From assembly GCA_963803145.1 (NCBI GenBank), contig CAWDLW010000002.1, positions 1 to 31,958 of the forward strand: a stretch of DNA of 31,958 nt, read 5' to 3'. This stretch comes from Methanotrichaceae archaeon. GTDB taxonomy: Archaea > Halobacteriota > Methanosarcinia > Methanotrichales > Methanotrichaceae. Every line of letters begins with the position of its first letter. The stretch's first letter is position 1. Shown here piece by piece: positions 1 through 25,915 of the stretch. The position numbers were made by a program, and so were the translations under genes. Under the pieces are notes generated by a model. That model was not told the origin of the DNA. It ran no database searches and worked only from the letters and a program-made list of their open reading frames with translations.

Positions 1-124
1 TCTTCAAAAATTCAGTTCCGACTAAAACCATTGCTACGGTCTTAATTTGGGCATAACGCAGACTGCAGTTGCATTCGCTGGCTCAAGGAATATCTATAAT
101 AGGGTTTATCACAATTTTTAGGCC

Positions 125-1101
125 ATGAAGATAGTTGTGGCAGATCCAGTACCTATGAATGAAAAATACAAGCGAAAGCTTGGAACCTTTGGGGAGCTGG
201 AAGTATTCGATGGCATGCCTGCATCAGCTAATGATTATGCTGAAAGGGTTAAGGACGCAGAGATACTTTTAGTGGGAAAGGACTTCGTCTCTCGTGATGT
301 ATTCCAGCATGCAGGCAACTTAAAGATGATTTGCGTTTGTCATACAGGCTATGACAATGTCGATCTGGAGGCTGCCACAGCTCGCGGCATAATAGTCTCT
401 AACGTCCCTAATTATGCCTCTGAAGCAGTGGCTGAGTTCGTTTTTGCCGTTGCTCTGGATCTCTTGAGGAAGATTGAGGTCGCTGATGTCATGGCGCATA
501 AAGGTGAGTTCGATGACCACTACTATGTCCATAACCGACTTTTGGCTGGCAAGACCATCGGAGTAATTGGCGCTGGGGATATCGGCAGGAGAGTGATGCA
601 AATTGCCCACACATTCAACATGAATGTGATTTCAACAACGGCACACCCAAGCTCTGAAAGAGAAGCGGAACTGGGAGTGAGGTTCGTGCCACTGGATAAC
701 CTTCTGACAGAGAGTGATATAATAACTTTGCATGTTCCTCTATCACCAAAGACTAAGCATATGATAGACATCCGAGAGCTGAAGCTGCTGAAACCGACTG
801 CAATCCTGATAAACACCTCCCGGGGTAAAATCATTAACGAGGATGCACTAATAGAAATACTCCGGAATGAAGCGATAGCTGGGGCTGCTCTGGACGTCTT
901 TGAGAAGGAGACTTTAAAGGCGGACAGCCCTATGATGAAGCTAGAAAATCTTGTCCTTACACCTCATATAGCCTATTTATCTGAAGAGACTACAGATAAG
1001 TGTGCTAGTATTGTTAGGAAAGCGTGGAGATGTTTCTGAAAGGCAATCCTCAGAACGTGGTTAATCCCGGTGTGCTTGGGAAGGGACAGCAGCAAAGCTG
1101 A
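125..1101 (+). CDS. D-isomer-specific 2-hydroxyacid dehydrogenase (glycerate/phosphoglycerate DH-like); frameshift near 1013-1022
   Basis: Motifs GYDNVD, GVIGAGDIG, LHVPL, INTSRG, ALDVF, LTPHIA. The track ORF ends at 1039, but another frame from 1021 reads SVEMFLKGNPQNVVNPGVLGKGQQQS* (TGA 1099-1101), the usual family C-terminus. Confidence 0.88.
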
Positions 1102-4948: not shown

Positions 4949-5743
4949 TCAGATAACAGCCTTCACCTTATCATAGCTGAACACAGGTCCATCCCGGCAC
5001 GCGTGATATGGTCCTATCATGCAGTGCTCGCATTTGCCAAGGCCGCACTTCATGTGCCTCTCCATTGAGACATAGATATCTGAATGGTTGAAACCGCGTT
5101 CCATCAGTTTTTTCGCAACGGCATTAATCATGATCGGCGGCCCACATATCGCCGCAGAGCCGGGGGGAAGCTCAAACCTGTCTATCAGCGATGTTACAAG
5201 CCCAACATTCCCCTTCCAGGATTCATCGCCGATATCTACTGTTATCCCAACCTCGACTCCAGCCTGCTGCCAGCTCTTATACTCCTGCATGAAGTAGAGG
5301 TCCTGGCGAGTCCGCGCTCCATACGCAACGGCAACCTTGCCGAACTCTTCACGCTTGTCTACAATGTAGTTGACCAACGAGCGCAATGTGGCAAAGCCGG
5401 AGCCTCCTCCGGCTATCACTATATCCTTCTTCATGCTTTCGAGCGGAAAGCCGTTGCCACATGGTCCTCTTATGCCTAATATGTCTCCGACAAGACAATC
5501 CATTATTCCGCTGGTGATTTTTCCTGCGCGTCTTATGCAGAGCTGCAGTGTTTTCCGGGTAGGCGAGGAGGTTATCGATATGGGACATTCGCCCAGGCCA
5601 AATACGGAGACCATAGCGAACTGGCCGGGCTTATAGCGGAACTCTGCACCCTCGTCCAATAGCTTGAGCGAGATGAGGTATGTGTTCGGCGACTCGATAT
5701 CTATATCCACGATCTCTGCCTGCATTGGAATGTATTCGCTCAC
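4949..5743 (-). CDS. FAD/NAD(P)-binding 2Fe-2S subunit (AsrB / sulfhydrogenase gamma / PyrK-like)
   Basis: PGQF, GIRGPCGNGF, AGGGSG, AICGPPIM, SMERHMKCGLGKCEHC, CRDGPVF. Likely GTG start at 5743 overlapping the corrected upstream stop. Confidence 0.88.
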   Translation of the reverse strand: MSEYIPMQAEIVDIDIESPNTYLISLKLLDEGAEFRYKPGQFAMVSVFGLGECPISITSSPTRKTLQLCIRRAGKITSGIMDCLVGDILGIRGPCGNGFPLESMKKDIVIAGGGSGFATLRSLVNYIVDKREEFGKVAVAYGARTRQDLYFMQEYKSWQQAGVEVGITVDIGDESWKGNVGLVTSLIDRFELPPGSAAICGPPIMINAVAKKLMERGFNHSDIYVSMERHMKCGLGKCEHCMIGPYHACRDGPVFSYDKVKAVI

Positions 5744-6727
5744 CTTGATACCTCCAGGTTCCATCTATCGATCTCTGCGAGGCATACAATGCCACATCTG
5801 CCCGCATCCAACACAGCCTACCATGCCTATCTTCTCGGGCAAATACTCAAACTTGTCCATGAACCAGTTCTGCATCCTCTCTCCCTGGCTCCTTCTGGGG
5901 TTAGCACCGCCAGCCATTCTTGAGAACCCAGAGAAAATGCAGGAGTCGCGGCATCTTACGCGCTCGCCATCTGGCACGCCGACATCTAAGATGTTAAAGC
6001 AATGGCAAACGGGGCAGATAAATGTACAGCCCCCACAGCTCAGGCACTGCCTGCCAATGGCGACCCAATCGGCATTCTTTATAGCCTTGCGTATCCCCTC
6101 AAGGGTCTGTTTCCTTGATTCAGCAACTCTTTTGGCATCATCCACCAGCTTACGCTTTTCAGATATCTGAGATTCTTCAGGCTGGTGAAAGAACTGGGGA
6201 TAATCCTTCAATATCAACATGCCCGCAGGCGATCCAGTCTCGATCAGATAGCCCGAGGGAAGTTCAGTCATAAGCAGGTCATAGCCCTCTTTGCATTCGG
6301 GGCCTGACCCCAGCTTTGCACATAAACACTTCTCATCTGGATTGATGCAGTTGAGCGCCACCACAATTGTAGATCTTCTTTTTTCCAAATACGCAATATC
6401 CTGCGGCTCGGAGCCGAATATTCTATCGAGTATTGAGATAGCTTTGAGATCGCAGGGCCTGATCCCAAAAAGCATCCTTGACTTTGGCGGCGGCTCTTCA
6501 AAGGTATATCTTCCACAGTCTTGTATGTACTTGAAGAGCGTCTCCTTTTGAGGCATGAGAAACTCCGTCGGAGGATAAAGTGTATTTTTATCGAGCGCAA
6601 GTTTTTGCCCGCTCCATGTGCCAAAAGAGGGCTCTCCCTCAATCATAATGGGCGCTATGATCTCAAGCTTCTCTCCGAGTTTAGAGAGCAGAGAGATAAG
6701 CTCATCCTTTGTAAGGAAGGCAATCAT
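5740..6727 (-). CDS. 4Fe-4S dicluster subunit (AsrA / sulfhydrogenase beta-like); frameshift at ~5801-5803
   Basis: FGIRPCD, CLSCGGCTFICPVCHCF, GCVGCG; removing one C at 5801-5803 restores GCVGCGRCGIVC...WNLEVSR* ending at TGA 5740-5742. Confidence 0.85.
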
Positions 6728-8757
6728 CGATCAGCCCTCCTTATCCTTGCAGCAGCTACCTTAAACTCAGGTATCTTAGATAAGGGATCAAGTGCCTGCG
6801 ATGTTAAGGCATTGGCAGGGGCCTCACTGAAATGGAACGGAATAAATAGCGTTTTCTCCGGGATATCAGGTGTAACTTTGGCATCCATATATAGATGCCC
6901 TCTTCGTGATTCGACAATAACTCTCTGGCCGTTTCTTATGCCCAGCTTCTCGGCATCATGCGGGTTGATCTCGACTGTGGGAAGAGGAATCTCCCTATCA
7001 AGAAGCGAGGTCCTGCGGGTCATTGTGCCCGTATGGAAGTGATAAAGGCTCCGTCCCGTTGTTAGAATGAAAGGATATTCATCGTCCGGAAGCTCCTGGG
7101 GATCGTGGTGCTCTACAGCCCTGAACCTTGCGAGACCAATTGGGAACAACTCTTTATGAAGTATTCCAGTCCCGGGATGGGCGCTGTCTGGACAGGGCCA
7201 CTGCAGACCGTTTATTCCCAGGCGATCGTAATGAACTCCGCCATAGTTTGGAGAAAGCGATGCGATCTCATCCATTATGTCGGCCGGGGATCTGTAATCC
7301 GCCTTAATGCCGAACCGTGTGAGAAGTTGGCTTATGATCTCCCATTCTGTCTTAGAATTGCCAACAGGTTCAACAGCTTTGCGCACCCTCTGGATTCGCC
7401 TCTCTGTGGAGGTAAATGTTCCATCCTTCTCTGCAAAGGATGCTGCAGGCAGCACAACATCTGCAAGCTCAGTTGTCTCGTTCGGAAATATATCAATAAC
7501 CGCCAGAAAATCAAGCTTCTTGAGTGCGTTTTTAACTTTACTGCTGTCAGGATAGCTCATTACAGGATTTTCGCCCACTATTAGAAGTCCCTTTAATTTG
7601 CCTTCTTCTGCGGCGGCCATCATCTCCAATGCCGTAAGACCTGGTTTGTCGGGCAGATCAGTCGACCATGCAGCCTCGAACTTCTTGCGGGCATCAGGGA
7701 CTGAGACCTTCTGGTACCCTGAGTAAAGATCAGGCAATGCACCCATATCGCATGCGCCCTGAACGTTCTGGTGGCCACGAAGGGGGTATAGTCCAGTTCC
7801 CTCGCGGCCTATATTTCCCGTTGCCAACACCAGATTTGCCAGCGCCTGAACATTATCGGTCCCTGTTGTGTGCTGGGTTATCCCCATTGCGTAAATTATA
7901 GCGGCATTCTTTGCTGAGCCGTATGCTTCTGCAGCCGCTCTTATTTTCTCTGCGGGTATGCCGGAGATTTGCTCTACAACCTCAGGCGTGTACTTTGAGA
8001 CGGCGTTACGCACTTCATCGAACCCTGTTGTTCTCTTTGAGATGAAATCCTCATCAATAAGACCATCTTGGATTATGATATTGAGAAGGGCGTTTATCCA
8101 GGCGATATCGCTCCCTGGTCTCGGAGAAATCCAGATATCTGCCATATCTGCTATCTGTGTTTTCCTGGGATCTGCTACGATTAGCTTTGCGCCTTTGGAC
8201 CTTGCCTCAAGAACATAAGAGGCAACAAGAGGATGCTGCCCAGTAGTATTTGATCCAACTATCAGTATTGCATCTGCCTTGGCGAGGCTTGATATAGGAT
8301 TGGTTGTTGCGCCGCTGCCGAAGGCATAGCTGAGCCCTGCAACAGTTGGAGCATGGCAGAGCCTCGCCACATGATCGACATTGTTCGTCTTGAAGGCTCC
8401 ACGCGCGAGCTTCATAAGCAGATAGTTCTCCTCGTTGGTGCCCTTGGCGGAGGTTAAAACACCCAATGAATCTGGGCCAAACTCATCTCGTAAGTGTTTT
8501 AACCGCTCGGCAATGAGATCTAATGCCTCATTCCAGCCTGCTTTGACGATTATGTCACCTTTCCTGATTAAGGGTATCCTAAGCCTATCAGGATGACCTA
8601 CAAACTCTCCTGCCAGCCAGCCTTTGATGCAAAGTCTTCCCTTGGAGAGGGGATGTGAATATGAGGGCGAAGCACCCACTATCCTATCATCCTCTACGTG
8701 GAGCAATACTCCGCAGCCACAACCGCAATAGGTACAAACGGTATGAACCTTCTTCAT
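6724..8757 (-). CDS. fdhA: Formate dehydrogenase alpha subunit (Mo/W-bis-PGD, Cys ligand)
   Basis: CTYCGCGC...LCIKG cluster motif, ARLCHAPT active-site Cys-His, PLRGHQNVQGACDMG, KIPEFK C-terminus; probable start MKKVHT at 8757. Confidence 0.92.
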   Translation of the reverse strand: MKKVHTVCTYCGCGCGVLLHVEDDRIVGASPSYSHPLSKGRLCIKGWLAGEFVGHPDRLRIPLIRKGDIIVKAGWNEALDLIAERLKHLRDEFGPDSLGVLTSAKGTNEENYLLMKLARGAFKTNNVDHVARLCHAPTVAGLSYAFGSGATTNPISSLAKADAILIVGSNTTGQHPLVASYVLEARSKGAKLIVADPRKTQIADMADIWISPRPGSDIAWINALLNIIIQDGLIDEDFISKRTTGFDEVRNAVSKYTPEVVEQISGIPAEKIRAAAEAYGSAKNAAIIYAMGITQHTTGTDNVQALANLVLATGNIGREGTGLYPLRGHQNVQGACDMGALPDLYSGYQKVSVPDARKKFEAAWSTDLPDKPGLTALEMMAAAEEGKLKGLLIVGENPVMSYPDSSKVKNALKKLDFLAVIDIFPNETTELADVVLPAASFAEKDGTFTSTERRIQRVRKAVEPVGNSKTEWEIISQLLTRFGIKADYRSPADIMDEIASLSPNYGGVHYDRLGINGLQWPCPDSAHPGTGILHKELFPIGLARFRAVEHHDPQELPDDEYPFILTTGRSLYHFHTGTMTRRTSLLDREIPLPTVEINPHDAEKLGIRNGQRVIVESRRGHLYMDAKVTPDIPEKTLFIPFHFSEAPANALTSQALDPLSKIPEFKVAAARIRRADR

Positions 8758-8943
8758 GAACGTCCAGGATAGACCTTTCCGCCATTTGATATAACAAAGT
8801 TTTGGACAGGATAGTTCTTGGGGCTGAATACACAAGATATTTATAGTTAATGTTAAATGGAGAGCATATACAAATAATAAAGTAAGCGCGTAAAAATATT
8901 TGCGCAGATATGGGATTCGCCTTTCCTTGGGAGTGGGAAAAGA

Positions 8944-10602
8944 ATGAGGGGAGTAGCGCTAATAGTAGTAATATTAGTTTTTGCTGTTGCCATATCTTTA
9001 GGCAGTCCGCCCATAAAGGAGCCTGTACAATATGAGCAGCTCGGTAGCGGCCTGAATGTGAGCGGCACAGGCATAATTGATATGAGCACATCTGCAGTCG
9101 ATAAACGAATTGCCCTCGACTATTTCAATTCACTTTCAGGCAACGGCAGCCTGGAGATGAATTCTGAGAGAGTATTCTCTGAGTCGGCCAGAAAGATAAG
9201 CAGAGATATAGGAATGGAAAACCTGTCCAATATGAACCTTTTTGACAGGTCCAAGATCACCTATTCAGGCGAAAGTCCCCTTGTAGGCAGCAAATCCCTC
9301 GGCTCCCAGTCATTTTACGGCGGCATCGGCGCGGATGCATTGGAGTCCTTCAGCGTCAACGAGTTTGAAGGCGAGCTGAAAAGCTACTTCGGCTCGACTT
9401 CAACTGCAACGAATGCTCACCTCGTAGGCTTGGATACCAAAAGCATCTTCAACGGAACATGGACGACGGACACAAGCTTGCATAAGCTACTTGAAAAGAA
9501 CATCAATTCGCATCAATCATTCTCAGGAAAGTTCGAGATAGATAGGCAGATAGAGATGCATGAGAAGGCAACATACAAATCGGCCATAAAGTGTGCGAAG
9601 ACTCCATCATCCGTCAATGTTAGCGTTGGGGATGTTGTGACGTATGAGTATAATGTTTACAACCCAAGCGACACAGTGATCTCAGGCATAAGCTTGGTTG
9701 ATAGCGATCTCGGCAAAATAAAGCTTGGTAGGACTGCGCTTGGGCCTAATGAGAGCACGAAAGGCGTTGCAGCTTATACCGTCACTGAGGATGATATCCT
9801 GGCAGGTCCTAGAGAAACCATAGCTACAGTTACCGGCGTAGACAATATGAATGAGCGTGTGGAGTCCCATTGCAGCTCATGGCTCGTGCCTGTAGCAGAA
9901 TACTACGAAGGCAATGCTCTTACAGCAACTAAGTGCCCTGAATGCGAGAATTGTGAGTTGCCGAAAGACAGCCAATCCTGTGCCGGATGCGATGTAGCTC
10001 CTGGCTCTTTCAATCTATACAAAGGAAACCTGACCATCTATGCCCTGGATGTGAATATGACAGAGAGCCGCTATCCGTTGCCCAATTGTCCATATGAAGG
10101 CTGGCCGGACCCTGAAACTTCAACGATCATAGAGTTCGGTGCTACGAACAGCAATGAGGTAAATGCAGCCGATCCCAACGCCTCTGTATGGCAGAGCTTG
10201 AGCCTAGAGCCTGGGGTTTACCTGGCCAAGCAGGCATATAGAGGCATTGATGGGGACGTAGTATCAGGAGGAACATATAGCTGGAATACGCCCTACGGAG
10301 GTTCGAGCCCCAACGGAGGCTTCCATTGCACAGGAGATCCGGAATATGATAGCTTTGATCTGAAATTGGTGCTTACCGATCTCGGACCGGGTGCGGGCTT
10401 CAGGACAGATGCATACCAGAGGGTATACAAGAGCGCTGATCAAAGTGAGAATGCCTACGATTGGCGGGAGATAGGCTCGCAGGTGGTGCCTGAGGAAGCG
10501 ATTGATAAGACGGATCTCAAGCCGTTTATCCTTGTGGCAAATGCGAGGAATAGCACAGGAGGAGGCACTATATCCTGGTCAAAGGTTATCGCAGCCGATT
10601 AG
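8944..10602 (+). CDS. Secreted/cell-surface protein with Ig-like (DUF11/DUF7507-like) module and Cys-rich linker
   Basis: Hydrophobic signal peptide; VGDVVTYEYNVYNPSD...LGPNES...YTVTEDD module; CPECENC...CAGC linker. Confidence 0.75.
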   Translation: MRGVALIVVILVFAVAISLGSPPIKEPVQYEQLGSGLNVSGTGIIDMSTSAVDKRIALDYFNSLSGNGSLEMNSERVFSESARKISRDIGMENLSNMNLFDRSKITYSGESPLVGSKSLGSQSFYGGIGADALESFSVNEFEGELKSYFGSTSTATNAHLVGLDTKSIFNGTWTTDTSLHKLLEKNINSHQSFSGKFEIDRQIEMHEKATYKSAIKCAKTPSSVNVSVGDVVTYEYNVYNPSDTVISGISLVDSDLGKIKLGRTALGPNESTKGVAAYTVTEDDILAGPRETIATVTGVDNMNERVESHCSSWLVPVAEYYEGNALTATKCPECENCELPKDSQSCAGCDVAPGSFNLYKGNLTIYALDVNMTESRYPLPNCPYEGWPDPETSTIIEFGATNSNEVNAADPNASVWQSLSLEPGVYLAKQAYRGIDGDVVSGGTYSWNTPYGGSSPNGGFHCTGDPEYDSFDLKLVLTDLGPGAGFRTDAYQRVYKSADQSENAYDWREIGSQVVPEEAIDKTDLKPFILVANARNSTGGGTISWSKVIAAD

Positions 10603-10839
10603 TCGGATGCCGCTTCAGCTCAGCACATCTGAGACAGCCCACTTATTTTTAAACGCAATGCTCCGCAGCTTGCCGCACAGGCACGCCGCCGTCATTTGAC
10701 TTGATGATTTAATAAGCTATAACAATGAGATTCTATAGTCTACCATAATTGAGTTGATGAATCGAGTTTCCTCATAGATCAAATTTTACCATCTGTCTAT
10801 AAGCCGCGTCTTAGTCAAACTTACAGCTCTCTAATTTCG

Positions 10840-11913
10840 GAATGCCCGCGAGTCGCTTCGCTCCCGCGCTGGCTGTTTACGGGGCTGTCGCGTGAGTCGC
10901 CGCGATGGGCTACCCTCCGGGACGGTTCACACGAGGAGGTAACAGGCTGTTGATTGATTGCCTGTCTCCTCGGTTGTCTGGGCATCTGCGCCGGTTCCAG
11001 CCATACCCACAATACGGCTGATTCACCTCACCACCGTGCCTTGAGAGCGGCACTACCTCAAAGTGATGCCCAAGGTACAGGGCGAGGGGATCAACTCGTG
11101 GTGAGTTAAGGGAGACCTCCTGGCAATTTAGTGTCTCCCTTGTGTGAGATGGTAGGAGGAAGAGATACTATGCCGTAATATTCATTAGCAAGTCGAATGC
11201 CAGAATCTTTCAGAGGTTCACCCACCGATACTAATCATATGCATAACAGAAGGGAACCTCCGAAAAGATTCTACCCTAAAGCTCGCATGCTCTAAGGGAG
11301 GAGGTTCTCGTGCATAACGCCTCAAAATGTGCTATGCAATTTCTGATTTCCATTATAATCAGAAATTTACCTTGGGCTTAAAGCCAATTTAATCCTACCA
11401 ACAAGTGTATATTCTATAACGATTAGATAGTTAATTTGCCGCGAAATAGGGCTGTAGCCGATTAAGCATCGGGGGCAGTATGTCACCTCCAATGGAGCGC
11501 CTCGCTTAACAGCGAAGTCTTCGGTGAAAGCGAGTTAAGGCATACATCGTTCAGTTCGTATATAAGCGCGGCAAGTAACGTCGTGTGCAGGCGAAGTGAG
11601 AGCAGGCCCCTCATCTTTGATGAAAGGGTCCCCGTAAGAAGGGCGCTGTGCTAGATACCAGTGCTGTCTCGCATTGCCTGTGTGAAGGCACAGGGCGGGC
11701 TTAAAATCGCCACTGCGGTGGCTGATTCCTCTGAGGAGGGCGCTGTGAGTCAGCGTTTGGCTCGCCTAAAACTTCACAGTACTATTCTCGTAGGTACATT
11801 CTGGGTTTGATGTTTGCTTACTGGTAATTGCCAGGCAGTGCAATCGGTATGCTGCCTACAGATATGTTTTTGATAAAAGTGTTTACGTGCGGGGGATGAG
11901 ATCCCCGCACGTA
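10840..11913 (+). ncRNA. Putative large structured non-coding RNA (~1.07 kb), family not recognised
   Basis: No credible ORF; more than 20 helices visible, including long-range pairs 10842-47/10980-85, 11027-34/11098-105, 11150-57/11393-400, 11436-43/11567-74, 11589-94/11762-67. G-U wobbles favour the + strand. Boundaries approximate. Confidence 0.7.
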
Positions 11914-12138
11914 TTTGGTTTAGAAGAATATCATCCTCCCAGCTTTGCAACTAAAGTACGGGGCATGTAAAATCACAAGTTTCAATTTTCATCAGGAATT
12001 TAAAATTTAAGTTGTAGAATTAACATGTAATTTACTTTAGGTGCAAATCCCGTCCTCCCGCAGCCTTTAAATAGAAGTAAAAATACTTAGCCATTAACCA
12101 TTATAGATCAAAAAGATAGTAAAGCTAGGGAGGAAGCG

Positions 12139-12558
12139 ATATCCGCTAATAGATTAATTTTAGTTGCTTTTTTCCTGATTGTACTTGTAGGATCATCTGT
12201 TGGATCATATAGTGAAACGACAACGGCCTCGTGGGATACAGTTACTCATTACGAGTATCATCATTGGGCCGGGAGAGAACCACTTGCCCCTCCGTGGTTT
12301 GAGGTTGTGGACACGTGGGATACGGCTAAGTCCTGTTCCTCCTCCAAAACCGATACCTTTTGTTGTAATGGTGATTTGTTATCTGAGGGCGATTGGAGCC
12401 CAGATTCATGCGGTGATCAATCAGCACCGTACAATGAGCATTGGCATCCGTTCGCCGGAATTTCCTGGAGCCTAGATGAACCTGATGCATATACCCGTGA
12501 GTCCACAACTCTCCAAAATTATCGAGAAACAACAACATGGAGCGGATCATGTCCCTAG
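12139..12558 (+). CDS. Small secreted Ser/Thr/Trp/Cys-rich protein (139 aa), apparent ATA start
   Basis: The frame of track ORF 12307-12558 stays open back to TAG 12088 and encodes a signal peptide ISANRLILVAFFLIVLVGSSVG; GGGAGG lies 5 nt before ATA 12139. Confidence 0.6.
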   Translation: MSANRLILVAFFLIVLVGSSVGSYSETTTASWDTVTHYEYHHWAGREPLAPPWFEVVDTWDTAKSCSSSKTDTFCCNGDLLSEGDWSPDSCGDQSAPYNEHWHPFAGISWSLDEPDAYTRESTTLQNYRETTTWSGSCP

Positions 12559-12569
12559 TGAGCAGCTAT

Positions 12570-13754
12570 ATGAAACTACGGAGACAGTTTCAACTCAAGT
12601 TGTTATATCATGCTTTAGTTGTTCTATTTGTGATTACTATTCTTAATAATTCAGTAGCGATGCCTGAACAGATGGGTGACATAACAATAATAGAAAAAAA
12701 TTTTGGTCATGTCGAGCCATACGCGTCTGTCATCCATAATACAACAATCAATTCCAGCAATCGTGAAGTATATTTCCTGGTCGCTTGGAAGAATAAATCT
12801 AATGAATTAGATATGATCTTGAATTCACCGAAAGGCATTCGTATCGAGCCGTCCTCTAACTATTCTAATATAAACTACTTAAAAAATGCAACGTTCAAAT
12901 ACTATGATATAAAAAATCCCGATCCTGGTGTTTGGACTATGGAGATTCTGCCTAGCAAGATGGAAACAATGCGAGAAGATTATTGTGTCATAATCAGCTC
13001 TCCATCGACCAAATATTATAATTTGCAAGAACCTAACGCAAACCTCAGTAACCTCTACAGCTCTCATGCGATTGACGATGATCGGGACGGATTTTATGAT
13101 CACATAGACGTGACGGTATATGTTCTGGTAAAGGTAGCTTGGATTTATAAAGTAAGCGCATCGCTTTACGATGATAAGGAGGTAGAAGTCGCCAATGCCT
13201 CTCAAGGAGCTTTCTTGAATCCCGTTATGCCATCAGTTATACTAAAGTTTTATGGAATACCTCATTCTGGAGTGTATCATCTTAAAAATGTAACTCTCTA
13301 CGACAATCTTGGAAAGATATTGGACAGACGCAATGGTGCCTATAGCACGCCTATGTATAAAAATTTCACCCCCAACCCACAGCTAGCCAAATTGACTAGA
13401 AATTATACGGACCATGGCATCGATATCAACGGCGATGGGAAATATGAGTTCCTGATCGTGAATATAGGTATAAATGCAATTTTTCCAGGGAACTATACAC
13501 TACAAGGATGGCTACATGACATAAATGGGTCTGAAGTTAGCTGGTCAGTAGATCAAGGCATCTTTAAGCCAGGATATCACATAATGAATCTCTCTTTTGA
13601 TGGCAAAACTATCGCGAAACACAAGGAAAATGGGCCATATCGCCTCGAAGATATCACCCTTTCTTCCAGGAGAGAAAAGGGAATTTCGACAGTGAATGAC
13701 TTTGAAAACGTTTACATCACCGATGAATATAAATATTCAGATTTCAGAGTCTGA
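12570..13754 (+). CDS. Secreted protein with PPC-like N-domain and two Dx[DN]xDG-containing repeats
   Basis: Signal peptide after MKLRR; DMILNSPKG...NPDPGVWTMEI; repeats DDDRDGFYD...GVYHLKNVTL and DINGDGKYE...GPYRLEDITL. Start could be 12537, 12549 or 12570. Confidence 0.78.
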   Translation: MKLRRQFQLKLLYHALVVLFVITILNNSVAMPEQMGDITIIEKNFGHVEPYASVIHNTTINSSNREVYFLVAWKNKSNELDMILNSPKGIRIEPSSNYSNINYLKNATFKYYDIKNPDPGVWTMEILPSKMETMREDYCVIISSPSTKYYNLQEPNANLSNLYSSHAIDDDRDGFYDHIDVTVYVLVKVAWIYKVSASLYDDKEVEVANASQGAFLNPVMPSVILKFYGIPHSGVYHLKNVTLYDNLGKILDRRNGAYSTPMYKNFTPNPQLAKLTRNYTDHGIDINGDGKYEFLIVNIGINAIFPGNYTLQGWLHDINGSEVSWSVDQGIFKPGYHIMNLSFDGKTIAKHKENGPYRLEDITLSSRREKGISTVNDFENVYITDEYKYSDFRV

Positions 13755-17624: not shown

Positions 17625-18968
17625 ATGGAGTGGATAAATGACATGTATTCCCAAGAACAGGTATTAAGCACTATCAAAGAGAAAAACGTGGAGTTCATCA
17701 GACTGCAGTTTTCGGATATCCAAGGAAGGGTTAAGAATGTAGCTATACCCATAACCCAGCTTGGAAAAGCCCTGAAAAATGGTATATCCTTCGATGGCTC
17801 TTCTATCGAGGGATTTGCTAGGATTCAGGAATCGGATATGGTTCTTAGGCCTGATATTTCCACCTTCAACCTCCTTCCCTGGAAGGCCCAGGACGGGTCG
17901 AACGAGGCACGGTTCATCTGCGACGTATATTATCCGAATGGCAGTCCATTCGAGGGCGATCCCAGATATGTCCTCAGACATATGTTGGATCAAGCCAGGG
18001 AGATAGGTTACACAATGAACGTAGGGCCTGAACTGGAATTCTATCTATTCGAAAAACAGAATGGAGGTTCAGCTACAAAGCCTCAAGACTTTGGCGGATA
18101 TTTTGATTTAGGACCAGTTGACCTAGCGGAGAGCATACGGAAAAAGATTATGAAAGCTCTGATAGAGATGGATTTTACTATCGAGGCCTCCCATCACGAA
18201 GTTGGCAAAGGCCAGCATGAGATAGACTTCGTCTACGATGATGCGCTCAGAAATGCCGATAAAGTTGTCACCTTCAAGTATGTTACCAAGACCATTGCCA
18301 TGATGGAAGGATTACGAGCTACTTTCATGCCCAAACCCATCTATGGGACTGCTGGAACTGGGATGCACTGCAACGTTTCACTCTTCCGCGGCAGCGAAAA
18401 CGCCTTCTTTGATCCCGAGATGCCTATGAATATAAGCGATTTGGCCAGGCATTTCGTCGGCGGGCTCAAGGAGCATGCCCGCGCTATAACAGCAATAGCG
18501 AATCCGCTGATCAACTCATATAAGAGACTGGTCTCAGGTTTCGAGGCTCCGGTATATGTAAGCTGGTCAGGGCCAAATAGATCATCGCTTATTAGAATAC
18601 CGGCCGGTCGTGGCCTCTCCACACGTCTCGAGTTCAGGTCTCCTGATCCGACCTGCAATCCATATCTGACATTTGCCGTCATCCTGGCCGCTGGTCTAGA
18701 CGGCATTAAGAGAAGCATTGATCCGGGAGAGCCTGTAGATCTCAACGTCTACGATTTGTCCAGCGAGGAACGTGAGGCTCTAGGTATTGGGACTTTACCG
18801 GGAAATCTGAAAGACGCCCTGGACAGCCTGGAAGAAGATAAAGTCATACAAAACGCTCTTGGTGAGCATATCTTCAATAACATAATGCGCCTTGGGAACC
18901 TGGAGTGGGAGGCGTATAACACCTGGGTGCATGATTGGGAGATCGAACGATATATAAATAATTTTTGA
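17625..18968 (+). CDS. glnA: Glutamine synthetase type I
   Basis: FDGSSIEGFARIQESDM, EASHHEV, ATFMPKP, GTGMHCN, NSYKRLV, RLEFRSPDP. Start may be a few codons downstream (MYSQEQ). Confidence 0.97.
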   Translation: MEWINDMYSQEQVLSTIKEKNVEFIRLQFSDIQGRVKNVAIPITQLGKALKNGISFDGSSIEGFARIQESDMVLRPDISTFNLLPWKAQDGSNEARFICDVYYPNGSPFEGDPRYVLRHMLDQAREIGYTMNVGPELEFYLFEKQNGGSATKPQDFGGYFDLGPVDLAESIRKKIMKALIEMDFTIEASHHEVGKGQHEIDFVYDDALRNADKVVTFKYVTKTIAMMEGLRATFMPKPIYGTAGTGMHCNVSLFRGSENAFFDPEMPMNISDLARHFVGGLKEHARAITAIANPLINSYKRLVSGFEAPVYVSWSGPNRSSLIRIPAGRGLSTRLEFRSPDPTCNPYLTFAVILAAGLDGIKRSIDPGEPVDLNVYDLSSEEREALGIGTLPGNLKDALDSLEEDKVIQNALGEHIFNNIMRLGNLEWEAYNTWVHDWEIERYINNF

Positions 18969-19030
18969 GAAATCTATCTTTTTCTTTTTAGTCCGCTCAT
19001 TCATTTCGGGAAGATATATATCGGACCAGA

Positions 19031-19044
19031 GGAAAGGCTATTCC
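19031..19044. promoter_or_regulatory. NrpR-type operator-like palindrome upstream of hisH
   Basis: GGAA-AGGCTA-TTCC (GGAA-N6-TTCC) just downstream of an ATATATAT TATA-like box. Confidence 0.4.
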
Positions 19045-19072
19045 GGCTAATGAAAATCGGACTTTGGTCTCC

Positions 19073-19675
19073 ATGATAGCTATAGTAGATTACGGGATGG
19101 GCAACTTGTTCAGCATCTACAACGCTGTGAACCACATTGAAGGCGGACCGGTGATTGTCAGAGAGCCGGAAGAGTTGAAAGGTGCTGACGGCGTGATAGT
19201 GCCTGGAGTAGGTGCCTTTGGAAGATGCATGGAAAGGCTCTCACGCTTTGAGACTGCCCTCTCAAACGTTTTGAGTGATGGAACTCCAGTCCTCGGCATA
19301 TGCATTGGCCTTCAAGTTCTCTTCGAGCGAAGCCAGGAGAGTCCGGGGGCAAAGGGCTTAGGCTGGATTAAAGGAGATGTGGTAAAGCTGCCGGATGGTG
19401 TGACCATTCCACAAATGGGCTGGAACAGCTTGTCCATTAAGCGCCGCATAGATCTACTGGATGGAATAGATGACGGCGATATGTTCTATTTCGTTCACTC
19501 TTATTATGGCCAGCCCCGAGATAAATCGGTGATAGTGGCAACTACTGAACATGGAGTAGACGTGACTGCCATGGTCTCTAGAGATAATCTGGCTGCAACC
19601 CAGTTCCATCCTGAAAAATCAGGGTCCAAGGGACTCAGAATACTCGAGAACTTTGTGAGGTCTACCAGATGCTAG
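19073..19675 (+). CDS. hisH: Imidazole glycerol phosphate synthase, glutaminase subunit
   Basis: [37 protein letters not shown]. Confidence 0.96.
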
Positions 19676-20481
19676 CCAGAAGGATCATTCCTTGCCTTGA
19701 TTGCGACCTGGGTGTTCCGGGCGGCAGGGTTGTAAAGGGCATAGAGTTCAAGCAGATCAGGTATGCAGGCGTACCGTGGGAGCTGGCAGGCAGATACTAT
19801 GAAGACGGAGCAGACGAGATTGTCTTCCTGGATATAACTGCATCCCATGAGCGTAGAGACACTATGACGAGTGTTATTAGTAAAACCTCTGAATCGGTCT
19901 TTGTGCCTCTGGCTGTCGGCGGAGGAATCAAAAGCGTAGAAGAGGCAAGAGCCGTCTTCAATGCAGGGGCCGATAAGGTAACTATGAATACATCAGCCTT
20001 GAAGCGCCCCGAACTAATAGTCGAGATATCCGATAGATATGGAAACCAGGCAGTTGTAGTGGCAATTGATGCCAAACGCAGATATAACCTGGAAGAAGGT
20101 CGTGAGATCATCGATACGCCTGAAGGCCGCTGCTGGTTCGAGTGCTCATTTTATGGAGGTCGCGAGTTCACAGGCATAGATGCCATAGCTTGGGCAAAGG
20201 AGGCCGAGCGGCTTGGAGCAGGCGAGATCCTTTTGACAAGCATGGATAGAGATGGAACATATGACGGCTTTGACATACCACTCACTAAGGAAGTATCTGA
20301 GCGGGTTAGAATACCGGTTATCGCCTCTGGCGGATGTGCCAGCCCCGATCATATGCTGGAGGTTTTCCAGAAGACAGATGCCTCTGCAGCTTTAGCAGCT
20401 AGCATATTTCATTTCGGCGAGTACAAAATCATGGATGTGAAGAGATACCTGGCAGAGCGCGGAATAAACGTCAGGGTCTGA
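19669..20481 (+). CDS. hisF: Imidazole glycerol phosphate synthase, cyclase subunit
   Basis: [53 protein letters not shown]. Confidence 0.97.
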
Positions 20482-24657: not shown

Positions 24658-25915
24658 GTGACTACTTCCCCGACTGAAGTCGGGGACATCTAGGCATTCG
24701 CCACAGACTGTAGCCCCAGTCTGAGAATGTTTATGGCTGCGTTATGATCTCTATCAAGAGTCAATCCACAGAATAAACACCTATGAACCCTCTCAGATAG
24801 ATCTTTTTGAACCAGTTGACCGCAGCCAGAGCATATTTGGGATGTATTTGAAGGATTCACCAGTTCGACACGTTTACCGGCCCATTCTGCCTTGTAAGAC
24901 GTGGCAGTTATCAGTTTGTTCCAGGCAGCATCCGCAATATGCTTTGCGAGACAATGATTCTTGATCATGCCCTTGATATTCAGATCTTCAAAGGCTATCA
25001 GATCATATGACTTCACAAGTTTCAGAGACAACTTTTGAACAAAGTCGTCTCTCTTGTTGGTGATTCTTTCATGAACGCGATGAACCGTTTTCAAGGCTCT
25101 CGCTCTTTCAGGTGTTCCTTTCTTTGCTTTGGATAGTCTCTTCTGAGCCTTTGCTAGAGCATTTTCTTCGTGAACGAAGAACCTTGGATTATCTACGTGT
25201 TCGCCGCTTGATAGAGTAATGAAACTTTTCAAGCCAACGTCGACACCAATCGACAATCCCGTTTTTGGAAGAGGATCGGATGGTTCAACTTCCACAAGGA
25301 AGGACGCAAACCATTTTCCTGTTGGCATTCTTCGGATGTTAAGCCTTTGGATATCTCCCTCTATGGCCCTATGCAACTTGATCTTAATATCTCCGATCTT
25401 GGAGAGCCAGAGTTTGCCGGGTTTCAGGGAAAAGCCTGATTGAGTGTAGGTGAAGCTATCGTACCTGCCATATCCCTTGAATCTTGGATAACCGGGATCT
25501 TCGCCATCTTTGACTCTACGGAAGAAAGCCTGATATGCCAGATCAACCCTCTTGACCGCTTCCTGCAGAACCTGTGAATGAGCGCTTTTCAATTCAGGTT
25601 TCTCTTCTTTCCACTGCGGCAAGAGCTTCTTTGTCTCGTAGTATGAAACTGATTTACCATCTTGCTCGTAGGCATTCTTTCTAGCTGCCAGTGTTTCATT
25701 ATAGGTCCATCGGCAAAGCTCCAGGGTATCAATCATCTTGGACCTCTGAAATTTTGAAGGATAGATTCTATACCGAAGCACTTTCAGCAAGTCACTTCAC
25801 CTTTTGTGTAGTCATAGATTTTGGAAGATATATAGACAATGTACGCGAGGCGAAAGTGATAGGTACGGGCTGTATCTCGCCAATGAATTGGCGGGGATTA
25901 GCCCTGTTTTCTTCC
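24658..25915 (-). mobile_element. IS200/IS605-family element, tnpB only (IS1341-like)
   Basis: Right-end hairpin CCCCGAC-TTCA-GTCGGGG followed by AAGTAGTCAC (minus strand, ends 24658); left-end hairpin CGCCAAT/ATTGGCG at 25877-92; no tnpA. Left boundary approximate. Confidence 0.85.
24690..25790 (-). CDS. tnpB: RNA-guided endonuclease TnpB
   Basis: YRIYP, GYPRFK, RuvC residues GVDVGL / AFEDL / DRDHNAAIN, zinc ribbon CSGC...CLFC. Confidence 0.96.
   Translation of the reverse strand: MLKVLRYRIYPSKFQRSKMIDTLELCRWTYNETLAARKNAYEQDGKSVSYYETKKLLPQWKEEKPELKSAHSQVLQEAVKRVDLAYQAFFRRVKDGEDPGYPRFKGYGRYDSFTYTQSGFSLKPGKLWLSKIGDIKIKLHRAIEGDIQRLNIRRMPTGKWFASFLVEVEPSDPLPKTGLSIGVDVGLKSFITLSSGEHVDNPRFFVHEENALAKAQKRLSKAKKGTPERARALKTVHRVHERITNKRDDFVQKLSLKLVKSYDLIAFEDLNIKGMIKNHCLAKHIADAAWNKLITATSYKAEWAGKRVELVNPSNTSQICSGCGQLVQKDLSERVHRCLFCGLTLDRDHNAAINILRLGLQSVANA

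Follow-up and report, generated by a model that had tools for sequence, protein, structure and literature searches.

In a 31,958-nt stretch of Methanotrichaceae DNA (hereafter the window, meaning the whole stretch and not the feature under study), a gap of 1.9 kb between two plus-strand open reading frames (ORFs; 8944-10602 and 12537-13754) houses the interval 10840-11913, which an earlier note had read as one non-coding RNA (ncRNA) of about 1.1 kb composed of five domains, D1 to D5. The interval is ORF-free as that note had claimed, with no ORF of at least 100 aa between 10603 and 12536, and the short ORFs in the gap are 41-65 aa long and lie on both strands. All the helices named in the note were present and perfectly complementary at their coordinates (8 of 8 closing or terminal stems and 12 of 12 internal motifs). 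The host is a methanogen as supposed, with mcrA in its genome, and all named archaeal records carrying the core word of the element belong to Methanothrix or Methanotrichaceae. The description as a relatively GC-rich block was true of 10801-11200 only (GC 0.555); the next bins (0.443 and 0.482) are close to the window average and compare with 0.468 and 0.410 in the flanks. The earlier observation is thus real, but its reading as one 1.1-kb RNA is wrong. Leaving function aside, the interval is probably a mosaic of repeat modules that contains a real structured-RNA gene family.

The part formerly called D4 and D5 (about 11436-11786, plus strand) is, as predicted from its conservation, a stand-alone gene for a structured ncRNA of about 340-350 nt. 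The gene and its upstream element consist of the following parts:

11388-11425, plus strand: upstream element, the word TTTAATCC and then a stretch resembling a B recognition element and TATA box (BRE/TATA-like; 11398-11425).
11436-11574, plus strand: 5′ domain (D4), closed by TTGCCGCG/CGCGGCAA (11436-43/11567-74).
11593-11771, plus strand: 3′ domain (D5), two tandem four-way junctions which define the family (model R1).
11772-11786, plus strand: 3′ trailer, AAAAC.TCAC.., at the end of cross-genus similarity.

Conservation beyond the genus was limited to about 11397-11786. The sequence 11395-11790 matched 61 of 105 Methanotrichaceae genomes at E ≤1e-5, and in about 30 of these the match was full length with 71-81% identity. 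The upstream element was kept in 28 full-length copies from 7 genera, TTTAATCC being followed by a CCGAAAAC-TGTATTATCTATAA-like sequence which, going by the promoter consensus, we take to be BRE/TATA. The first helix begins about 25-30 nt after this stretch, a spacing that is constant in both the B-type (window-type) and the hsp20-type copies. The 28 close copies gave an RNAalifold fold of 81 pairs with 97.2% of cells paired, and 20 of the 81 pairs were compensatory as compared to 8.4±1.9 in shuffles (0 of 500 as high) and 4-8 when slid. Many of the pairs are G-U on the plus strand, so that the fold is available on that strand only, and the remark in the earlier note that G-U pairs favour the plus strand is borne out for D4 and D5. 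The D4 and D5 helices as drawn in that note (alignment A1) were 88.5% paired but covaried weakly, in 8 of 28 pairs as compared to 4.7±1.4 in shuffles, 15 of 500 of which were as high.

The 5′ domain has a cUUCGg loop and the word GCCGAUUAAG, which is invariant. Pairing in its closing helix is 92-94%, and two-sided changes occur in 2 of the pairs. The interior of the domain varies between lineages, its GTATGTC arm being missing in 15 of the 28 copies. Each of the two four-way junctions of the 3′ domain has a closing stem of about 10 bp, a long hairpin with an internal loop and a short hairpin, and the third hairpin of each (5-6 bp) carries GYRCUGUG...CRGUGC. The two halves of the domain can be aligned with each other (z 2.9, a score reached by 2 of 500 shuffles). 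The helix AGGCGA/TCGCCT, proposed earlier as the closure of D5, is preserved in the close copies, but it barely covaries and competes with a mutually exclusive stem, GGGCGG/CUCGCC(U), in which 7 of 7 pairs covary.

The family was defined by a covariance model, R1, of 11593-11771 (179 positions, 50 pairs). The window sequence 11593-11771 on the plus strand matched R1 at 187.3 bits over positions 1-179, the model being partly built from that very sequence, and the independent support for the family is given by 40+ diverged paralogues which match over the full length. In the window's own genome (G000) R1 found 10 sites, 9 of them full length. Across the class 49 of 151 genomes matched, all in family f1 (48 of the 74 other genomes of the family, with up to 10 matches per genome), and there were no matches in 76 genomes from four other families of the class or in 150 other genomes of the phylum sample. 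Among the groups searched, most Methanothrix (g2) carry the RNA, whereas g6, g5 and g12 lack it. Four bacterial matches to the core word were tested and all failed R1. As judged by these searches the family appears to be undescribed and restricted to Methanotrichaceae among the genomes searched, and the suggestion in the earlier note of a new class of archaeal structured RNA is in this part correct.

A wide alignment (A3) was made of 67 R1 matches, 65 of them distinct and many only 55-76% identical to the window copy. Among the 65 distinct copies 93.4% of cells were paired, and 36 of the 50 pairs had changed on both sides as compared to 22.5±2.0 in the shuffle control (0 of 500 as high) and 11-20 when slid. 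Compensatory cells numbered 299 as compared to 88±12. On the 5′ side of the 3′ domain the paralogues share a UUGYCGCG/CGCGRCAA helix, a small hairpin with GCCGAUUAAG and the word GUCUUCGG. The promoter element and the 5′ helix enclosing GCCGAUUAAG were found in the window, in the 28 B-type copies and in the hsp20-linked copies. The rest of the 5′ regions differs in length, and the predicted RNA length is about 340 nt for the window type and reaches about 500 nt in others.

The subtype found in the window appears to spread between loci and genomes as a cassette of about 400 nt comprising promoter and RNA. Copies of this type are located next to unrelated housekeeping genes (LarA, histidine kinases, radical SAM, Pus10, DUF6612) in any orientation. 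At a junction between LarA and histidine kinase genes the RNA unit is present in two genomes (G097 and G081), and the same junction is empty in four others (G089, G104, G099 and G088), the two genes there being 6-33 nt apart. Two of these four (G089 and G099) carry a copy at a different locus which is 93-94% identical to the G097 unit, as compared to 88-91% for the flanking genes. Between the window genus and Methanothrix the 3′ domain is 80% identical in the window subtype as compared to 65% in the syntenic hsp20-linked paralogue. The unit that has moved is about 400 nt long and consists of the promoter-like block and the RNA; as the promoter is carried along with the RNA, DNA-level movement is likelier than retroposition. 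A scan of viral contigs for the core word returned 3 stretches, one of which matched R1. This is a predicted viral or mobile contig (L239, IMGVR_UViG_3300036987_000262) which ends inside a window-type copy (1-133, minus strand, 150.9 bits) and encodes an ArdC-like anti-restriction protein/metallopeptidase; no clear virus hallmark was found among the 8 ORFs scanned on it.

It could be argued from such data that D4 and D5 are nothing but non-autonomous mobile DNA, similar to miniature inverted-repeat transposable elements (MITEs) or palindrome-associated transposable elements (PATEs), with a structure that reflects DNA constraints or descent. Filled and empty sites, non-syntenic copies, conservation above that of the flanking genes and the mobile contig ending in a copy would all be expected of such an element, and in G000 the unit is bracketed by two palindromes, H1 and H2. 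Mobile DNA as the full explanation is nevertheless improbable. The preservation of 36 of 50 pairs by compensatory change across paralogues of 55-76% identity and a pairing which depends on G-U and works on one strand only speak against it, as does the paralogue that has remained syntenic upstream of hsp20 at 15 loci in 3 genera. Furthermore, no terminal inverted repeats were seen, no transposase was linked to the family copies in the 61 loci examined, and H1 and H2 are absent from the copies of other genera.

Clustering of the flanking frames in the 61 loci identified this orthologous subgroup of 15 loci from 3 genera, in which the RNA precedes a same-strand Hsp20 gene (PF00011). A further paralogue is located before the gene of the chromatin protein MC1. 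These arrangements could suggest that the family is a cis-regulatory leader, that is a riboswitch or RNA thermometer, of the gene downstream. In the hsp20-linked loci the RNA and hsp20 each have their own conserved BRE/TATA-like element, with 120-310 nt between the end of the RNA and the hsp20 start. Because the hsp20 element, with a 5′ leader of its own, comes after the RNA, the RNA is a separate gene and not the leader of hsp20. B-type copies adjoin unrelated genes, often in convergent or divergent orientation. The window copy is separated from the start of the next downstream ORF by about 370 nt, and the duplication of the unit did not include that ORF. A cis-regulatory leader is therefore quite improbable and was rejected for the window copy, and as specific candidates a riboswitch and an RNA thermometer were rejected for the TATA element of hsp20 that follows the RNA and for downstream genes that are heterogeneous and often on the opposite strand. 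RNAduplex predictions between the hsp20-linked RNA and the translation start of hsp20 gave z-scores of -1.7 and 0.05, and the anchor pattern was found in 2 of 15 loci only.

Two observations were made on the paralogues and their neighbours. The Hsp20 genes of the three genera (L051, L178 and 13 further loci) share the near-identical promoter AAAATTTATATCC and a conserved leader of about 55 nt with a CACTA..GGTTAGT hairpin just before the ribosome-binding word AGGTGA, and this could itself be an RNA thermometer. One subgroup of paralogues in G000 (C18:129165-129345, C42:11990-12150 and C17:1450-1630) has a second strong BRE/TATA-like element after the RNA, followed by a 10-bp hairpin, GGCAAAAGTC...GACTTTTGCC, which may mark another small transcription unit or a terminator that acts in both directions.

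The surroundings of the gene were investigated by searching 10700-12000 against G000 and 40 relatives (41 genomes in total). The query split into pieces with unrelated copy numbers and taxonomic ranges, and on this evidence the interval appears to be a junkyard-like intergenic patchwork of independently repeated modules rather than one giant RNA. The modules would run from repeat A and its rare extension (10769-11337) through the H1 palindrome to a duplicated unit of about 575 nt (11339-11913), with features as follows:

10736-10763, no strand assigned: 28-nt motif, present in repeated copies, upstream of repeat A.
10769-10972, no strand assigned: repeat A (D1), a genus-specific multi-copy element.
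10973-11337, no strand assigned: extension of repeat A (D2 and most of D3), with a long foldback at 11202-11272 inside.
11338-11368 (31 nt), no strand assigned: H1 palindrome, 11-bp arms around a conserved asymmetric spacer of 9 nt.
11339-11913: duplicated unit, with the D4+D5 RNA gene as its core.
11787-11883, plus strand: genome-specific tail of the duplicated unit, holding the first T5 run after the RNA.
11884-11913, no strand assigned: H2, the terminal 11-bp hairpin, a repeated palindrome that ends the duplicated unit.

Repeat A has a near-invariant core of about 95 nt (about 10845-10935), followed by a variable hairpin. It occurs in 14 other copies in G000 with 80-88% identity, all intergenic and in either orientation to their neighbours, and is abundant in the genomes of the same genus (G001 and G002). 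In the other 38 genomes no match of repeat A length was found, the only match there being one of 35 nt in G014. Aligned copies (10, then 35) were folded on both strands, and the core proved too invariant for a call on strand or RNA. Of the two TATA-like words noted earlier at about 10708 and about 10797 both exist, but the second is unconserved among the other copies of repeat A. The 28-nt motif upstream recurs with 100% identity at G000:C17:253108-253135 and at C9:5438-5465, while copies with 89-90% identity are located upstream of two other repeat A copies (on C17 and C25).

The extension of repeat A was found at one other locus only (G000:C38:3917-4099, minus strand) and has no homologue in G001 or G002. 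For D2-D3 no homologue was found in another species among the genomes searched. In that only other long copy an IS630-like transposase gene is inserted between the repeat A core and the extension (C38:4127-5124, minus strand; L257), split into ORFs with HTH (157 aa) and DDE_3 (155 aa) domains. H1 was found at 21 sites in G000 at ≤5 mismatches, directly after repeat A in 5 of its 14 other copies and also after the long C38 copy, and it precedes all three B-type copies in the genome. H1 would by its positions be a module-boundary element marking the edges of repeat A and of the RNA cassette, and its layout is that of the core site of a tyrosine recombinase or the operator of a dimeric regulator, a likeness by analogy.

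The duplicated unit has a copy of 95% identity at G000:C18:43305-43886 with sharp edges at 11339 and 11913, and another of 83% on C11 which stops at 11787. A piece from the end of the unit (11806-11915) is also located upstream of DUF6612 genes on C1, C46 and C23. H2 was found at 4 sites in G000 at ≤5 mismatches. Short matches to H2 of 90-97% identity occur in G005, G019, G012 and G002, several of them close to contig ends, and H2 follows some of the repeat A copies in G001 and G002.

The former reading of 10840-11913 as one plus-strand ncRNA of about 1.1 kb with five domains, an archaeal counterpart of GOLLD, ROOL and OLE, was assessed against these modules and against chance. Simple arithmetic for 1074 nt gives about 140 complementary pairs of 6-mers, about 9 of 8-mers and about 0.14 of 11-mers. 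As the chance expectation is already that high, the 6-bp closures of D1 and D5 and the 8-bp closures of D2, D3 and D4 are not significant alone, and significance by itself is reached by the two 11-bp hairpins only. Folding z-scores from 100 dinucleotide shuffles per block and strand were:

D1 block: -0.48 on the plus strand, -3.92 on the minus strand.
D2-D3: -4.96 on the plus strand, -6.59 on the minus strand.
D4+D5: -2.44 on the plus strand, -2.24 on the minus strand.
Tail: -3.28 on the plus strand, -4.13 on the minus strand.
Controls from coding sequence: +0.3 to +2.1.

Stability was moderately above that of the shuffles, but inconsistently so between strands. The minimum free energy was lower on the plus strand both for the whole interval (-407.3 kcal/mol as compared to -384.7) and for D4+D5 (-131.8 as compared to -109.1). 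Of the two halves, the left is stabler on the minus strand and the right on the plus strand, which is at odds with one plus-strand transcript. That the listed helices exist, that the free energy of the whole is lower on the plus strand and that there is neither an ORF nor an Rfam match is consistent with a single RNA. The supposed domains are however separate repeat modules, each with its own copy number, range and edges, which occur together at no other locus in the 105 family genomes. For D1 to D3 the minus strand gives the better fold, the supposed transcript contains a conserved promoter-like element midway (at about 11398-11425), and the closure drawn for D3 (11150-57/11393-400) pairs the extension with the start of the duplicated unit, that is two unrelated modules, in addition to the short closures being at chance frequency. 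One RNA across the interval is thus highly improbable. Decay of one or more protein-coding genes, which the 41-65-aa ORFs on both strands and open frames of 80-129 aa across the core in some homologues could indicate, is scarcely credible given the absence of 3-periodicity (column entropy by codon phase 0.469, 0.460 and 0.482), of any frame open in all copies, the open frames varying in strand and frame, and indels that are not multiples of three, in agreement with the earlier note.

A possible function for the RNA gene family can be outlined from its architecture. The RNA would be transcribed from its own promoter and act in trans as a protein-bound RNA, in which the paralogues would share the constant 3′ domain as a handle for protein binding or structure and would owe their individual specificity to the variable 5′ domain. 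We infer this joint reading (own promoter, trans-acting ribonucleoprotein (RNP), 3′ handle and 5′ specificity) tentatively, as possible rather than probable. A further-reaching version, in which a new RNP system found in Methanotrichaceae only would have the family as its RNA core, with a 3′ domain for handling or self-assembly, exchangeable guide-like 5′ domains and autonomous cassettes possibly recombining at H1-type palindromes, is unlikely. We know of no archaeal example of a mobile RNA gene without a linked protein gene.

Genome comparison establishes the existence of the family, its fold and strand, its independence from the neighbouring genes and its multi-copy and partly non-syntenic distribution. 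Several points weigh against the reading as a whole. That the RNA acts in trans within an RNP is guesswork based on its architecture, and transcription, its strand, its start site and the 3′ end of the RNA are deduced from conservation only. No T-rich terminator directly follows the conserved 3′ end, the first T5 run being about 90 nt downstream, near 11868. The stability of D4+D5 as a single sequence is only z -2.4 and differs little between strands. Since A3 was aligned to the model, its pairing is inflated, and the shuffle control ignores relatedness; despite the model-fitted alignment the margin is large and the covariation in D4+D5 is strong. As to mobility, visual inspection of 17 copies aligned together with their flanks revealed no terminal inverted repeats. 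Of the two filled sites examined, that of G097 and not that of G081 is clearly flanked by a 9-bp direct repeat, and the repeat overlaps a word conserved before most copies. Deletion rather than insertion is also a possible explanation of the empty sites.

To our knowledge very few large structured RNAs other than rRNA, RNase P RNA and signal recognition particle (SRP) RNA have been found in archaea, and the relatives of Methanothrix are among the main biological producers of methane. The RNA described here is lineage-specific, 340-500 nt in length and present in up to 10 paralogues per genome, and dozens of compensatory changes have maintained its fold. A copy beside a heat-shock gene has been fixed there since before the genera split, and another subtype moves between loci and genomes. 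It is a concrete object for transcriptomics, structure probing and pull-downs, and may reveal a new RNP or a new form of RNA-gene mobility. The interval also calls for caution in reading sequence alone, since a convincing nested fold of 1.1 kb can be drawn over a mosaic of unrelated repeats.

Elsewhere in the window, the genes that surround the gap (4949-8835 on the minus strand and 17625-20481 on the plus strand) are of ordinary metabolism and include a formate-dehydrogenase-like molybdopterin oxidoreductase with iron-sulphur and FAD/NAD subunits, glutamine synthetase and HisH/HisF-like genes. An open frame at 12139-12558 (plus strand) has a signal-peptide-like start after a GGGAGG word; its first codon is ATA, and an ATG, GTG or TTG is not reached before 12307. 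The frame overlaps the ORF 12537-13754 (plus strand), which is in a different frame, has no Pfam match and may reflect a non-canonical start, a frameshifted gene or a sequencing error.

For known RNA families the whole window was searched with the 4227 models of Rfam 15 at their gathering scores, and 10600-12200 was searched in addition at E values up to 10. The window had no gathering match, as the earlier note had expected of an RNA outside the known families, and in 10600-12200 there were only chance-level matches of microRNA type at E ≥0.11, the best being mir-296 with 22.4 bits as compared to a gathering score of 66 (E 0.11). The paralogue loci likewise gave no match on the element, their only gathering matches being 3 tRNA genes elsewhere in three loci, and ARAGORN found no tRNA or tRNA-like gene in the window. 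GOLLD, ROOL, OLE and the other families of Rfam 15 were rejected, none of the covariance models matching near its gathering score. A group II intron was rejected as well, as there was no Rfam intron match at E up to 10 and no ORF above 65 aa, and the neighbours of 10 copies are housekeeping genes. In the literature no ncRNA of this kind was found for Methanothrix or Methanosaeta, although supplements might list such a cluster, and the matched passages of 2026 preprints on atlases of intergenic sequences mention neither Methanothrix nor methanogens.

The only other structured RNAs above 300 nt with their own promoters that we would expect here are archaeal RNase P RNA and SRP RNA. Neither RNase P RNA (RF00373) nor SRP RNA (RF01857) matches in the window, the genuine copies being on other contigs, with one SRP RNA (181 bits) and three RNase P RNAs (208-215 bits). 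Three full-length RNase P RNA genes are unusual (G000:C9:3971-4272, C38:46773-47074 and C17:254301-254602). The identical copies of the 28-nt motif (10736-10763) lie about 1.2 kb from two of them, which suggests a duplicated segment, and redundancy of the assembly (contamination 6.77%) is also possible.

Correia/NEMIS, ERIC and REP/BIME elements are, as H1, H2, repeat A and 10736-11913 in general, short and partly palindromic intergenic modules which form mosaics. They are however usually below 200 nt with a simple hairpin, whereas D4+D5 keeps a multi-junction fold across genera by compensatory changes. The omega RNAs of TnpB and IscB (HEARO in Rfam) and the bridge RNA of IS110 are transposon-associated guide or scaffold RNAs, and the D4+D5 family resembles them in being multi-copy, in a size of about 150-400 nt, in travelling with mobile DNA and in combining a constant scaffold with a variable part. 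The D4+D5 RNA differs in having its own promoter, and is not placed within the 3′ end or the 5′ untranslated region of a transposase gene. No TnpB, IscB or IS110 gene adjoins the family copies in the 61 loci, and there is no HEARO match. A TnpB-type gene is present in the window at 24690-25790 (minus strand; OrfB_IS605, Cas12f1-like TNB and HTH_OrfB_IS605 domains), which indicates IS200/IS605-type elements in this genome; it is 13 kb from the RNA and has no sequence in common with 10600-12540. A derivative of such elements (PATE) with an omega RNA was rejected, with no adjacent tnpB, no TnpB similarity and the H1/H2 bracket in G000 only.

OLE, GOLLD and ROOL are large bacterial ncRNAs with functions that are unknown or have recently begun to emerge. 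With these the D4+D5 family shares a long and intricate fold, strong covariation, restriction to a lineage, discovery by comparison before function and, in some cases, carriage on mobile DNA. It differs in being archaeal, in a length of about 340-500 nt rather than 600-800 nt, in having up to 10 diverged paralogues per genome and in its modular composition, a variable 5′ domain joined to a constant 3′ domain of tandem four-way junctions.

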